Positions 11,999-28,755 of a stretch of 28,840 bases of DNA are shown here, in pieces; position 1 is the stretch's first letter; every line of letters starts with the position of its first letter. The DNA comes from a virus (lineage: Duplodnaviria > Heunggongvirae > Uroviricota > Caudoviricetes). The notes beneath the pieces are model-generated. The model was not told the DNA's origin and searched no databases. It worked only from the letters and a program-made list of their open reading frames with translations. The stretch lies in the IMG/VR virus record IMGVR_UViG_2609459848_000003; one strand, written 5' to 3'. The translations under genes were made by a program, and so were the position numbers.

Positions 11999-12189
11999 GT
12001 ATTTTTAAGTCGCGAATGCTATCTTTTCGCATCATATTGACCTTTTAATCGTTCAGGCTTATAGTTTCGCCGTCGTAGCAAATTCTGCGACCGGGTTTAG
12101 CAGCCTGAATGATTGTGCGGACAGCCGCAGATATCCGATATTGCGGTATTTTTGTGTCCGTAAAACCGCGTTACGCCCAAATTATGGTG

Positions 12190-12265
12190 GGGCGTGATGG
12201 GGAGGCTTCGGCCTGCTGGTTTCACAATCGCCAGTCTGCTAACCCCGTCACGTCCTGCCACCTGT
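12190..12265 (+). ncRNA. c4: c4-like antisense repressor RNA (structured, tRNA-like)
   Basis: Nested hairpins: GAUGGGG...CCCCGUC outer stem, AGGC-UUCG-GCCU tetraloop hairpin, CUGG-uuucacaaucg-CCAG hairpin. Loop tcacaatc (12222-12229) is exactly complementary to gattgtga (12295-12302) at the icd ribosome-binding site. Ends are approximate. Confidence 0.45.
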
Positions 12266-14558: not shown

Positions 14559-15404
14559 ATGCTGGCTAAAGTCACTTTCCTGAGCTGTATAACGATGAGC
14601 GATTTTACTTTTTCTGGCTATGAATTGGCCTGCTTTGTAACACACTCCGGTCTATCCCGTAGCGCCGGGCATATCCTGTCGCAATGTGCAAATCTCGCGG
14701 CAACAACCAGTGAATATTTCATTCACAAGCCTCACCGCCTGATCGCGGCAGAAACTGGTTATAGCCAATCAACCGTCGTTCGTGCATTCCGTGAAGCTGT
14801 AAACAAAGGAATCCTGTCTGTAGAGATTGTTATCGGCGATCACCGTGAACGCCGCGCTAACCTGTACCGGTTTACACCATCCTTTTTGGCCTTCGCACAA
14901 CAAGCTAAAAACGCGCTGACTGAAAGCAAATTAAAGATCTCTTCAGCCGCAACCAAGGTTAAAGCTGTTCTCGCTAAGACATTGGCTTTATTTGATTTTT
15001 TAACCACAGCCCCATATCAAAATGATACCCCCTCCCCCTGTCAGGATGACGTGGCAATAAAGAATAAGAAGTCACAAGTTAAAAAAACAAAAAGATCAGT
15101 TTCCGGCGGTGCCGGAACGACCAGACTCAAAAAATTGACTTCATGGATCGCTGAGGCAAAAGCAAAGGCTGACAATCTGCGGTTATCCAAAAAACGCACT
15201 CAAAAACATGAGTTCAAGCAGAAAGTAGAGGCGGCTGCGCGGAAATATGCTTACCTGAAGAACAAGCGTTCGCCTGATATTGGCGGGATATCAAACTTCG
15301 ATAACCTACCGCATTGCATGACGGTAAACGAAGCTCTTAATGCGGTTTTAGCCAAAAATAAAGATAACGAACAATGGGGTATACCGGCGGGATTCAGAGG
15401 GTGA
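14559..15404 (+). CDS. repL: Lytic replication initiator RepL (281 aa)
   Basis: Position directly after kilA and the 281-aa length match P1 RepL as I recall it; the lytic origin is expected inside this gene. Confidence 0.7.
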   Translation: MLAKVTFLSCITMSDFTFSGYELACFVTHSGLSRSAGHILSQCANLAATTSEYFIHKPHRLIAAETGYSQSTVVRAFREAVNKGILSVEIVIGDHRERRANLYRFTPSFLAFAQQAKNALTESKLKISSAATKVKAVLAKTLALFDFLTTAPYQNDTPSPCQDDVAIKNKKSQVKKTKRSVSGGAGTTRLKKLTSWIAEAKAKADNLRLSKKRTQKHEFKQKVEAAARKYAYLKNKRSPDIGGISNFDNLPHCMTVNEALNAVLAKNKDNEQWGIPAGFRG

Positions 15405-15639
15405 TAGATTGCTCTAATCTGGAGTCACCTGGCGTTTTCAGTATGGATTTTCTTTGGCGCGGTCTGGCCATTAGGGATCATGTTTGCTGCAACATTTCTT
15501 CTGATGTGGATATTCACCCTTCCCGGTGATTTCTATAGAAAAAAAGCCAGACATTGATACAATCGTTGCGGGTGCTTGAGGCTATCTGCTTCAGGCATTA
15601 CCCGAAAAGCAGATAGAAGAAAGCCCCAGATAACATTAA

Positions 15640-15720
15640 GCGTCCTGCAAGACGCTTAACATTAATCTGAGGCAATATCTATGCTTAGCATACGTAGATT
15701 AGCCTCTTACCGACCAAAAG
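15640..15720 (-). ncRNA. sok: Sok-like antisense RNA (approximate position)
   Basis: Inferred from the hok/mok architecture; the leader GGGTGCTTGAGGCT...AGCCTCTTACCG...CAAGGAGAAG resembles the R1 hok mRNA leader from memory. Exact ends not determined. Confidence 0.3.
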
Positions 15721-15887
15721 GTCAAGGAGAAGCAGGCTATGAAGCAGCAAAAAGCGATGTTAATCGCTCTGATCGTCATCTGTTTAACCGTCATTGCGAC
15801 GGCACTGGTAACGAGGAAAGACCTCTGCGAGGTACGAATCCGAACCAGCCAGACGGAGGTCGCTGTCTTCACAGCCTACGAATCTGA
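15681..15887 (+). CDS. mok: Mok (modulator of killing) reading frame overlapping hok
   Basis: 68-aa ORF starting 58 nt upstream of hok and overlapping it in another frame, as in the hok/mok/sok arrangement. Confidence 0.55.
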   Translation: MLSIRRLASYRPKGQGEAGYEAAKSDVNRSDRHLFNRHCDGTGNEERPLRGTNPNQPDGGRCLHSLRI

Positions 15888-15894
15888 AAGGTAA
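15739..15894 (+). CDS. hok: Hok/Gef-family type I toxin (51 aa)
   Basis: Hand translation MKQQKAMLIALIVICLTVIATALVTRKDLCEVRIRTSQTEVAVFTAYESER; SD AAGGAG 9 nt upstream. Close to Gef/HokC and Hok of plasmid R1 ([28 protein letters not shown]). Below the 60-aa cutoff of the ORF track. Confidence 0.85.
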   Translation: MKQQKAMLIALIVICLTVIATALVTRKDLCEVRIRTSQTEVAVFTAYESER

Positions 15895-15971
15895 GAGACC
15901 TGGCGTGGAGAGATCCCCGCCACTCTTCGTGTGTCAGGTATCCTCAATGCACCCTTTCCTCTCCAAATAAA

Positions 15972-15991
15972 AAAGCTCCCGAAGGAGCTTT
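15972..15991 (-). terminator. Bidirectional rho-independent terminator between hok and the leftward late operon
   Basis: Stem AAAGCTCC-cgaa-GGAGCTTT; on the minus strand it is followed by TTTTTTATTT. Confidence 0.6.
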
Positions 15992-16010
15992 AAAATACAA
16001 GGGATGACTC

Positions 16011-16520
16011 TTAATCCCAATCAATCCAGTTGTAGACGATACGAAGTGACGGGCGCACAGCGGCAGTCACATCTTCGGTACTAAAGTCGATTGCATCACT
16101 GTAGATTTTGCAGTCCAACATTTCAATTGTTGTAGCAGCTTTTGTCACAGCGTTAACCCCGGAAGATTTGGATTCAGGGGTAGCAGCCATCGTGATATCA
16201 ACATAGTCCTTCGCCGCAATGCGATCCTTGATGAACTGAAGAATATCGCCTTCGATAGTCTCCACGCACTGGACCTGGATTTCCCCAGAGTTTCGAATTG
16301 GTCCGTGCTGGTTGAACTTCACACCATTCGGACCATAGTCCTCCACATCCTCGCGGGTCATTTCAGGAATTTGCGACGTGCGAACCAGTACGCTGATATC
16401 TTCATGGCCTGCAAAAGTGAGCTGGAATTCAGAAGATACCAGTCGTTCGCCTTTGGCCGCGTTGGCAGTATAGCGGCCCTTAATAAATTTACGGTTTCCC
16501 TTAGTGTTATTGTGCCCCAT
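16011..16520 (-). CDS. Phage late structural protein (169 aa), possibly tail tube-like
   Basis: Last gene of the leftward late operon, followed by a terminator; no motif recognised. Confidence 0.35.
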   Translation of the reverse strand: MGHNNTKGNRKFIKGRYTANAAKGERLVSSEFQLTFAGHEDISVLVRTSQIPEMTREDVEDYGPNGVKFNQHGPIRNSGEIQVQCVETIEGDILQFIKDRIAAKDYVDITMAATPESKSSGVNAVTKAATTIEMLDCKIYSDAIDFSTEDVTAAVRPSLRIVYNWIDWD

Positions 16521-26338: not shown

Positions 26339-27952
26339 TTATTTATTGGTGAGTACTACGTTCCATGGCAGGAGTTCGTCAACTCGGTTGGAAGGCCATT
26401 CCGGCAGTACGCTCAGGATATGGCGCAGATACGCTTCCGGATCGATACCGTTCAGACGGCAGGTGCCGATCAGCCCGTACAACAGTGCTCCACGCTCGCC
26501 GCCGTGATCGCTGCCAAAGAACATAAAGTTTTTCTTTCCGAGACAGACTGCACGAAGCGCTCTTTCCGCAGCATTATTATCCGCCTCCGCCAGACCGTCA
26601 TCACTGTAATAACAGAGGGCATCCCACTGATTCAGTACATAGCTGAACGCTTCGCCCAGTCTGGATTTTTTCGACAGCGTACCATTCTTCTCCACCATCC
26701 ATTCATGCAGCGACGTCAGTAACACTTTGCTTCGCTGCTGCCTGACGGCAAGACGCTCTGACTCCGGTAATCCCCGTATTTCATCCTCGATGGCGTACAG
26801 TTCACTGATTCGCTTCAGGGCTTCTTCTGCCGTCGCACTTTTGCTGCTGATGTATACATCGTGGATTTTTCGCCGGGCATGGGCCCAGCACGCAACTTCT
26901 GTCAGTGCACCACCTTCACGTTCTGCACTGAACAACCTGTCGTAACCTGTGAACGCATCCGCCTGCAGGATACCCCGGAAGGGGCGGAGGTGTTGCTCCG
27001 GGTGTTTCCCCTGCCGGTTCGGCGAGTACGCGAACCAGACCGCTGGAGGAGATGACGAACCCACATTGCGATCATCCCGGACATACGTCCAGATACGCCC
27101 TGTTTTCGCCTTTTTCTGACCCGGTGCCAGTACCTTTACCGGTGTGTCATCAGTGTGAACCTTGCGGGTGTTCATTACATAACGGTACAGGGCATCATTC
27201 ACCGGTGTCATTAACTGGCAGCACGCGTCAACCCAGTTGGAGAGTAAGGCCCGGCTCAGTTCGACACCCTGGCGGGCAAAGATTTCACTCTGACGATACA
27301 GTGGCAGATGTTCGCAGTATTTTCCCGTTAACACGCGGGCAAGTAATCCGGGGCCCGCGATACCACGCTCTATCGGGCGGGACGGCGCCGGTGCTTCAAC
27401 AATACAGTCACATTTTGTACAGGCTTTTTTTACCCGTTCTGTGCGGATCACTTTCAGGGCACTGCTCACCAGTTCCAGCTGTTCAGCGCTGACTTCCCCC
27501 AGATAATCCAGCTCACCGCCACACTCCGGGCAACAGCTTTCTTCTGGCTCCAGGCGGTGTATTTCACGGGGAAGGTGTGCCGGTAACGGACGACGATGGC
27601 GCGACTGTCGCAACTGGCGGGGAACCTGAGGATCGTCTTCCCGCCCACTGTAACGATCGCTGTCCTGTTCACGTTGTTTCAGCAGAGCCTCAGCCAGTTC
27701 AACTTCACGACGCAGTTTTTCAGAACGGGTACCGAACAGCATCCGGCGCAGTTTTTCTATCTGAGCCCGCAGATGTTCTATTTCCCGTTCATCTTCTTCG
27801 ATCTTTTCTTCGGCACGTGTCAGTGCAGAGCGCAGGAAGGCTTCCGTCTCTTCAACCAGACTCAGTTGCTGGTCTTTCTGACGGAGGGCTTCAGCCTGCT
27901 CAGAGAGCAACCTTTCCAGCTCTGCGATGCGAATGAGGTATTTCTGACTCAT
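26339..27952 (-). CDS. tnpC: IS66-family transposase TnpC (537 aa)
   Basis: Leucine-zipper-like N-terminus, CPECGG zinc-binding motif and LPLYRQ, typical of IS66 transposases. Confidence 0.9.
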   Translation of the reverse strand: MSQKYLIRIAELERLLSEQAEALRQKDQQLSLVEETEAFLRSALTRAEEKIEEDEREIEHLRAQIEKLRRMLFGTRSEKLRREVELAEALLKQREQDSDRYSGREDDPQVPRQLRQSRHRRPLPAHLPREIHRLEPEESCCPECGGELDYLGEVSAEQLELVSSALKVIRTERVKKACTKCDCIVEAPAPSRPIERGIAGPGLLARVLTGKYCEHLPLYRQSEIFARQGVELSRALLSNWVDACCQLMTPVNDALYRYVMNTRKVHTDDTPVKVLAPGQKKAKTGRIWTYVRDDRNVGSSSPPAVWFAYSPNRQGKHPEQHLRPFRGILQADAFTGYDRLFSAEREGGALTEVACWAHARRKIHDVYISSKSATAEEALKRISELYAIEDEIRGLPESERLAVRQQRSKVLLTSLHEWMVEKNGTLSKKSRLGEAFSYVLNQWDALCYYSDDGLAEADNNAAERALRAVCLGKKNFMFFGSDHGGERGALLYGLIGTCRLNGIDPEAYLRHILSVLPEWPSNRVDELLPWNVVLTNK

Positions 27953-27982
27953 GACCGTTTTTATAATGCGGTCAGGAGTTTT

Positions 27983-28333
27983 TTACAACATTGTCAGTGA
28001 GTTACGGCTGGATGTTTTTGGCTGACGCCAGTCCAGCTTATCGAGGAGCATTGCCAGTTGCGAGCGGGTAATGGATACCTTGCCGTCACGTACCGCAGGC
28101 CAGATAAACTGGCCTTCCTCCAGGCGTTTGGTGAACAGGCACAGACCATCAGCATCAGCCCAAAGAATTTTGACGGTGTCACCCCGTCGGCCACGGAAGA
28201 TAAACAGGTGACCGGAGAAGGGATTATCATTCAGCACATGTTGTACCTGTTCTCCCAGTCCGTTGAAGGATTTACGCATATCGGTAACGCCGGCAACGAG
28301 CCAGATACGGGTACCTGATGGGAGTGAGATCAT
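27983..28333 (-). CDS. tnpB: IS66-family accessory protein TnpB (orf2, 116 aa)
   Basis: MISLPSGTRIWLVAGVTDMRKSFNGL...FIFRGRRGDTVKILWADADGLCLFTKRLE is the characteristic IS66 Orf2 sequence. Confidence 0.9.
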   Translation of the reverse strand: MISLPSGTRIWLVAGVTDMRKSFNGLGEQVQHVLNDNPFSGHLFIFRGRRGDTVKILWADADGLCLFTKRLEEGQFIWPAVRDGKVSITRSQLAMLLDKLDWRQPKTSSRNSLTML

Positions 28334-28755
28334 CTTCCCCTCCCGGTCAGTTCACGGATCAACACTGTGAGCAGCTCTGGCGATGGATTTTCCAGCGTCA
28401 TGTTACCGTGACGGAATTCCACCTTGCAGGAACTGGCACTGACTCTGGTCTGAGTGGAAGTGGATAAAGACGGCGCAATGGCCGCCACAGGTTCTTTCTG
28501 CTCATCCGGCGTTATTTCTACAGGTAATAATTCAACGCCAGTGTCAGAAGAGGTCGTTACCGGAAGACGCCGCGAAACACGCCCTTCGTTCTGCCAGAGC
28601 CTGAGCCATTTGAAAATAACATTATCATTGACGCCATTTTCACGTGCAATCTGTGCAACACAAGCTCCAGGTTGTGATGCCAGTTCCACCATACGAAGTT
28701 TGAATTCATTCGAATAGTTTTTACGAGGTTCTTTTCGCCAGTCCTGTAATTCCAT
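28330..28755 (-). CDS. tnpA: IS66-family accessory protein TnpA (orf1, 141 aa)
   Basis: Position first in the IS; helix-turn-helix-like region NYSNEFKLRMVELASQPGACVAQIARENGVNDNVIFKWL; 4-bp overlap with tnpB. Confidence 0.8.
   Translation of the reverse strand: MELQDWRKEPRKNYSNEFKLRMVELASQPGACVAQIARENGVNDNVIFKWLRLWQNEGRVSRRLPVTTSSDTGVELLPVEITPDEQKEPVAAIAPSLSTSTQTRVSASSCKVEFRHGNMTLENPSPELLTVLIRELTGRGR

Follow-up and report, generated by a model that had tools for sequence, protein, structure and literature searches.

Where a toxin-antitoxin cassette is carried by a phage-plasmid, the point at issue is whether it stabilises the plasmid, contributes to phage release or excludes other phages. The question is not a long-standing puzzle, and it is raised here by a short locus in a 28,840-nucleotide stretch of DNA from a tailed-phage record of class Caudoviricetes (IMG/VR virus record IMGVR_UViG_2609459848_000003; the whole stretch that was analysed is called 'the window' below). 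The window represents a P1-like phage-plasmid, in which ant, kilA and repL precede bplB, pmgG and the genes for tail tube and sheath, the latter group being encoded on the opposite strand. The C4 antisense RNA (69.6 bits) and the a1/b1 target sites (54.6 bits) of the P1 immI region were found intact at 12059-12265 (+), as expected for a P1-like element.

The original prediction, made by reading the sequence alone, had described a hok/mok/sok-type type I toxin-antitoxin locus between repL and the late operon. Both flanks (repL upstream and the bplB homologue of the late operon downstream) and both open reading frames (51 and 68 amino acids) were located where it had placed them (Table 1), and the toxin family, the leader homology, the mok frame, a Sok gene with a promoter and the tac-fbi pairing were all recovered. 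The region from approximately 15536 to 15991 is thus very probably a complete hok/mok/sok cassette of the hokW/hokD subgroup, working by the classical mechanism and most likely serving in post-segregational killing. The cassette is apparently intact in the window, every regulatory part having been found by sequence. The view that the locus had been missed did not hold for the public annotation, in which it does have a name (hokD in RefSeq and MokW in GenBank record MH422554). The cassette is of a known kind, already annotated at the same locus in public records, and is not new; since it has been annotated in hundreds of P1-like plasmids and experiments have been published on its closest relative, it must be regarded as ordinary. 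Its significance beyond correct annotation is small: the toxin-antitoxin module is regulated by RNA, belongs to a textbook family and, in the closest relative examined, comes second to the phd/doc system of P1-like plasmids, which bears on the stable persistence of P1-like plasmids, frequent carriers of resistance genes.

Table 1. Elements of the predicted hok/mok/sok cassette and its neighbouring genes, in window coordinates
Feature	Position	Strand	Basis and details
repL	14559-15404	+	Upstream neighbour of the cassette
hok promoter-like site	15536-15563	+	Consensus scan; -35 TAGAAA 15536-15541, 16-nt spacer, TG-extended -10 TACAAT 15558-15563
Predicted full-length hok mRNA, ~422 nt	15570-15991	+	Structured leader, mok and hok frames, 3' UTR with fbi, terminal hairpin
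hok mRNA leader	15570-15744	+	Rfam RF01794, mRNA sense strand
tac element GGGTGCTTGAGG	15570-15581	+	5' end of predicted mRNA; pairs with 15942-15954
Putative Sok antisense RNA gene, 71 nt	15619-15689	-	Alignment of annotated 933W SokW misc_RNA
mok Shine-Dalgarno GAGG	15669-15672	+	Read from sequence; 8 nt before mok ATG, within Sok-complementary region
mok frame, 68 codons	15681-15887	+	ORF list; alignment with 933W mokW
Putative Sok promoter	15696-15725	-	-35 TTGACC 15725-15720, 18-nt spacer, -10 TAATCT 15701-15696; start 15689
hok Shine-Dalgarno AAGGAG	15724-15729	+	Read from sequence; 9 nt before hok ATG
hok toxin gene, 51 aa	15739-15894	+	Pfam HOK_GEF; N-terminal hydrophobic helix, conserved C-terminal part including Cys30
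fbi (fold-back inhibition) element CCTCAATGCACCC	15942-15954	+	3' UTR, 47 nt past hok stop
GC-rich hairpin AAAGCTCCCGAAGGAGCTTT	15972-15991		Terminator scan (called on minus strand); between convergent hok gene and late operon
bplB homologue	16011-16520	-	Downstream neighbour of the cassette

The 51-aa product (MKQQKAMLIALIVICLTVIATALVTRKDLCEVRIRTSQTEVAVFTAYESER) belongs to the Hok/Gef toxin family, as had been proposed. In a protein profile search it matched Pfam PF01848 (HOK_GEF) over profile positions 1-42 of 42 with 76.8 bits (E = 9.7e-22), the cut-off of the model being 22 bits, a match well outside what chance would give. Identity was 90% to HokW, 80% to HokC/Gef and 41% to R1 Hok; the earlier description of the toxin as Gef/HokC-like was right in kind, but its nearest relative is of the HokW/HokD type. 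The residues that are invariant among the window Hok, HokW, HokC and R1 Hok include C15, T25-R26-K27, L29-C30-E31, E40-V41-A42 and Y47-E48-S49. A scan of Hok against NCBIfam gave sub-threshold matches only (PRK09738, 47.1 relative to 73 bits; HokA equivalog, 36.6 relative to 89 bits), both models representing other Hok subgroups, and the RefSeq name hokD was not reproduced by HMMs because no NCBIfam model exceeded its cut-off. Relative to the P1-like record MH422554, the window allele carries the changes V20A, G37S and T42A, and only one other plasmid record, pH8A, was found to encode precisely this protein (A20, S37; RefSeq 'HokD', 100% identical).

The 68-aa frame had been assigned to the mok position, and its start codon, Shine-Dalgarno sequence and frame offset do match those of known mok genes. 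The mok ATG precedes that of hok by 58 nt, in a different frame, and aligns with the annotated mokW start of 933W; the frame ends 7 nt before the hok stop. When the Hok protein was held fixed and synonymous codons were randomised, a frame of at least 68 codons remained open approximately 10% of the time (P ~0.10), so that the openness of the frame is weakly significant and the mok call rests on positional homology. A 57-aa antisense ORF (15699-15872, -) and the other small ORFs of the region were dismissed as by-products of the hok/mok overlap, nothing having been found to support them.

The resemblance of the upstream leader to hok mRNA leaders, which had been proposed by comparison with R1, was confirmed with a covariance model. 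The 175-nt leader matched the full length of Rfam RF01794 (model positions 1-157) at 114.5 bits (E = 1.2e-25; gathering score 59 bits), and the same model also matched hokW, hokC and R1-type loci on the hok sense strand, each match ending at the hok ATG. Because it is the sense strand that is matched, the RF01794 match is evidence for a hok leader and not for an antisense RNA. This Rfam entry, named 'sok antitoxin', models the hok leader from +1 to the hok ATG, in the window as well as in five of the loci used for comparison (L004, L007 and L009-L011), and strand calls made from it would consequently put Sok on the wrong strand.

Assigned from sequence, transcription of hok would start near G15570, which is position 1 of the Rfam match and lies 7 nt past the promoter-like site. 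The resulting mRNA of 422 nt had a minimum free energy of -168.6 kcal/mol (z = -9.25 relative to shuffles), with its 5' end paired with the 3' region. In this minimum-energy fold tac, the first 12 nt of the predicted mRNA (GGGUGCUUGAGG), pairs with fbi (CCUCAAUGCACCC), and the duplex of fbi with the first 14 nt of the mRNA was assigned -21.0 kcal/mol, a value equalled by 2 of 300 shuffles. The tac sequence is identical in the window, 933W hokW and hokC, and a complementary fbi was found 47-54 nt past the stop codon of hok in each of the six loci of the comparison (window, 933W hokW, an intact hokC, one R1-type locus and two Klebsiella plasmid loci with an R1-like Hok). Between subgroups, the pairing differs by one compensatory swap from U-A to C-G (relative to the R1 type) and by two wobble-compatible single changes. 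Folded without the 3' region, tac is predicted to form a local 5' hairpin, consistent with the refolding of the R1 model. The complement of the hok Shine-Dalgarno sequence, CTCCTT, was likewise invariant in the six-locus alignment. At the other end of the transcript, the GC-rich hairpin at 15972-15991 is a clear terminator for the minus-strand bplB operon and probably also forms the 3' end of the hok mRNA. Only three T residues follow the hairpin on the plus strand, which makes the 3' end the least certain part of the hok mRNA, an uncertainty that matters for the removal of fbi.

On the opposite strand, homology and structure point to a cis-encoded Sok, complementary to the mok translation start and with a promoter of its own. 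This putative RNA is made up of a 16-nt single-stranded 5' tail (15674-15689) that lies over the mok start codon, a long hairpin (15673-15623) and a U-rich 3' tail, with a fold energy of -32.4 kcal/mol (z = -6.2). The positions of the Sok -35 and -10 elements are conserved in all six hok loci, the R1 type among them. A consensus promoter scan of the window did not call the Sok promoter, because the -10 element is weak, TAATCT matching the consensus at three of six positions; its placement relied instead on an alignment with sokW and R1-type loci and on the primers designed in PMC8621323. There, the sokW -10 element that aligns with that of the window is the site mutated in a 'promoter-less' construct, in which antitoxin activity was lost (primers YO-421/422; PMC8621323). 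Two leader positions, 15639 and 15674, carry A in the window and C in pH8A and MH422554. As both fall in the region common to Sok and its target, complementarity between the two is unaffected, and A15639 makes the upper stem of the Sok/target hairpin perfectly paired (TTAAGCGTC/GACGCTTAA).

The way in which such a cassette would work in the window is taken from the R1 hok/sok and Sp5 hokW-sokW systems, by analogy with which its transcription, processing and toxicity are described below. The dynamics of R1 follow the Gerdes-lab model of hok/sok. A constitutive promoter would give rise to a stable hok mRNA of approximately 420 nt, which would be translationally silent through pairing of the 5' tac with the 3' fbi. 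Slow trimming from the 3' end would take off fbi, upon which the 5' end would refold and expose the mok translation start, translation of hok presumably being dependent on that of mok. Sok (71 nt, minus strand), a short and unstable RNA transcribed from its own promoter inside the mok/hok leader, would pair with the mok start region, thereby blocking translation and marking the duplex for RNase III. Were Sok not replenished, as after plasmid loss or a shut-down of transcription, the 51-aa Hok would be made, would insert in the inner membrane, and the cell would be killed or arrested. For the Sp5 counterparts, HokW was reported to be toxic, neutralised by sokW and located in the inner membrane, with a partial dependence on RNase III and Hfq, and SokW to be a 71-nt RNA with demonstrated antitoxin activity (PMC8621323).

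Among known systems, hokW-mokW-sokW (933W and Sp5/VT2-Sakai) is the most similar, with 86% DNA identity over 15558-15954, 90% identity of Hok, the same tac sequence, the same extended Sok hairpin and a Sok of 71 nt in both. The host element of hokW is an integrated lambdoid phage, whereas that of the window is a plasmid prophage; mokW extends HokW at the N terminus in the same frame (offset 57), whereas the window mok is out of frame (offset 58) through a 1-nt indel, and the Sok -10 element reads TAATCT in the window and TAACCT in sokW. The hokD-type loci of E. coli chromosomes and prophages share 86-89% DNA identity over approximately 390 nt and the same RefSeq product name, but these chromosomal or prophage-borne copies have other contexts than the copy in the P1-like element. 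The K-12 hokD (relF) copy, which we take to be without the upstream regulatory elements, differs in this respect from the window locus, which has all of them. The hokC (gef)-mokC-sokC locus is more distant (approximately 74-75% DNA and 80% protein identity), with tac and fbi in the same places and an RF01794 score of 122 bits; its Sok hairpin is without the 16-nt extension seen in the window, its mokC is in frame with hokC (offset 57), and its location is chromosomal, between nhaA and dnaJ. The R1 locus hok/mok/sok (parB) shares with the window the tac-fbi pairing, an out-of-frame mok with offset 58, the position of the Sok promoter and the leader homology. It differs in a mok of 70 codons in the R1 type (68 in the window), in a Hok that is 41% identical, in tac and fbi sequences that have undergone a compensatory change, and in a backbone that is conjugative and of IncFII type in R1 but P1-like, of IncY type, in the window.

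Canonical P1 (NC_005856) was found to be without the cassette: homology with the window ends at 15418 and resumes at 15969, and P1 has rlfA-rlfB-pmgF (1826 bp) at that place. The place corresponds to 'variable region 5' of P1-like phage-plasmids (PMC9603915). The literature on P1-like elements that was consulted contained no explicit 'hok', only an indirect mention of an 'antibacterial toxin' that replaces rlfA-rlfB-pmgF (PMC6906374). The cassette moved as a unit, since the homology with 933W hokW spans exactly the stretch from the promoter -10 element to the end of fbi (15558-15954). The same cassette was present at the same place in approximately 300 P1-like plasmids and six phage records, and matches to it were found in 5425 of 5426 complete E. 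coli genomes when the hokD and hokC types were counted together. No public record identical to the window over its full length was found. Among plasmids, the best matches span approximately 90% of it at 98-99% identity, and the element is therefore a mosaic.

Some smaller features were noted between repL and hok. Of the C1 operator Orlf/Op55 of P1, which corresponds to window 15408-15424, the first 11 nt (ATTGCTCTAAT, 15408-15418) are kept just past repL, and the P1 homology stops midway through the operator, at 15418. Furthermore, 143 bp common to most P1-like relatives are absent at 15439/15440. This deletion removes the start of an 81-aa ORF (WP_001369095.1) between repL and hok, the product of which has a hydrophobic, membrane-like appearance and no family match; out-of-frame remnants of the ORF are left at 15374-15529 and 15480-15557, and its stop codon lies inside the hok promoter. 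An artefact could be ruled out as the source of the deletion, since the identical deletion occurs in 30 plasmid records (and in 0 phage records).

In a plasmid prophage, the most likely role of the cassette is post-segregational killing that adds to phd/doc. Retention of the plasmid through the killing of plasmid-free segregants would be in line with the R1 paradigm and with the plasmid lifestyle of P1-like elements. The type II system phd/doc of P1 belongs to the same kind of element and has the same presumed role, which is to kill or arrest cells from which the plasmid prophage has been lost; its sequence is unrelated, and it employs a protein antitoxin and a Fic-family kinase toxin where the cassette would employ an antisense RNA and a membrane peptide. 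The genes phd and doc have been reported to belong to the core genes of P1-like phage-plasmids (PMC9603915). They lie outside the window, and pH8A, which carries the identical Hok, also encodes Phd and Doc. The cassette had been called an extra or alternative module; judged in pH8A, where phd and doc co-occur with it, 'extra' is the correct term and 'alternative' is not.

A serious second possibility is that, like hokW-sokW, the cassette assists cell lysis when the prophage is induced. The same machinery would then have lysis and progeny release as its main job, Sok disappearing on induction and Hok acting before the holin and endolysin, so that lysis is advanced as in Sp5. We consider this rather unlikely as the main role, but hokW-sokW, the closest characterised relative (86% DNA and 90% protein identity), does behave in this manner: upon mitomycin C treatment the sokW RNA vanishes and HokW appears in a RecA-dependent fashion, and phage release is halved without the locus (PMC8621323). 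This effect in Sp5, approximately two-fold, is nevertheless modest. With the C1-controlled lytic replicon on one side and the end of the late operon on the other, the position of the cassette would suit a function in phage release, yet nothing in the window ties Sok transcription to C1 or to late promoters. Similarly, hokW/hokD-type cassettes are mostly prophage-borne, and killing upon plasmid loss is meaningless in that setting, whereas P1-like elements are low-copy plasmids, the classical setting for stabilisation by hok/sok; moreover, many relatives with a disrupted locus are widespread all the same.

Defence of the lysogen by exclusion or abortive infection is a weaker alternative than phage release, and improbable as the main role. 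Here the shut-off of host transcription by a lytic phage would deplete Sok and release Hok early. According to figures cited in PMC8621323, R1 hok/sok on a high-copy plasmid lowered the plating efficiency of T4 by 42% and plaque size by approximately 85%, but the effect on T4 is weak and a high copy number was needed. The variable regions of phage-plasmids often hold defence cargo, yet a PADLOC scan of Hok and the neighbouring 81-aa ORF matched no defence model, and the cassette is without neighbouring defence genes, its sole neighbour being this small ORF, which is truncated in the window.

It is about equally improbable that the cassette, rather than being a plain addiction module, is wired to the lysis-lysogeny switch of P1-like phage-plasmids. 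The setting for such wiring may be given by its location between the C1-controlled repL/oriL, with the partial C1 operator, and the end of the convergent late operon, as read-through transcription entering from one side or the other upon induction could change the ends of the hok mRNA or deplete Sok. For example, antisense late transcripts across fbi could trigger Hok and bring about earlier lysis and phage release, by analogy with hokW-sokW in Sp5. If this were true, one cassette would serve addiction during lysogeny and would assist lysis during lytic growth.

Relatives can do without the locus: some have IS186/IS421 between hok and fbi, and others have lost the toxin gene. In the former, a subgroup of P1-like plasmids, IS186/IS421 (transposase WP_001300563.1) lies in a GC-rich hairpin within the 3' UTR of hok, at the site equivalent to window 15907-15917, with approximately 11 bp duplicated and fbi separated from hok (L005 6347-7707 and L008 2117-3480). 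The same element occurs at exactly the homologous site downstream of hokC in K-12-like chromosomes, and in both cases the junction lies between ...GATCCC and ATAAGCGCTAAC; a 10-bp repeat, GGATCTCTCC, was described for IS186B in pSvP1 (Venturini 2019). This 3'-UTR site is a recurrent hot spot for IS insertions that disable hok loci. The latter subgroup (L006 4001-4777, equivalent to window 15560-15707) has retained hok promoter, leader and Sok region as far as window 15707, past which an unrelated 198-aa ORF on the opposite strand, without a Pfam match, replaces the toxin gene and the 3' UTR, so that Sok and the leader are orphaned.

Repeated disruption of this kind, together with the uncommon substitutions V20A and G37S in the window allele and the weak Sok -10 element, would fit an inactive relic that, as with several hok loci on the E. 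coli K-12 chromosome, is carried along by recombination without any ability to kill, but this is unlikely, and the least likely of the readings considered, because every element (promoter, tac, mok, hok, Sok promoter and hairpin, and fbi) is intact in the window, and also in view of the tolerance of a small polar residue at Hok position 37, where other Hok toxins have Thr, and of the intact form being the commonest among P1-like plasmids.

Elsewhere in the window, an IS66-family element was identified at 26339-28755 (-), with ORFs for a TnpC-like transposase of 537 aa (26339-27952), a TnpB-like protein of 116 aa (27983-28333) and an HTH TnpA-like protein of 141 aa (28330-28755). As the similarity to most P1-like plasmids ends at approximately 26308, this element represents an insertion on the plasmid-maintenance side.
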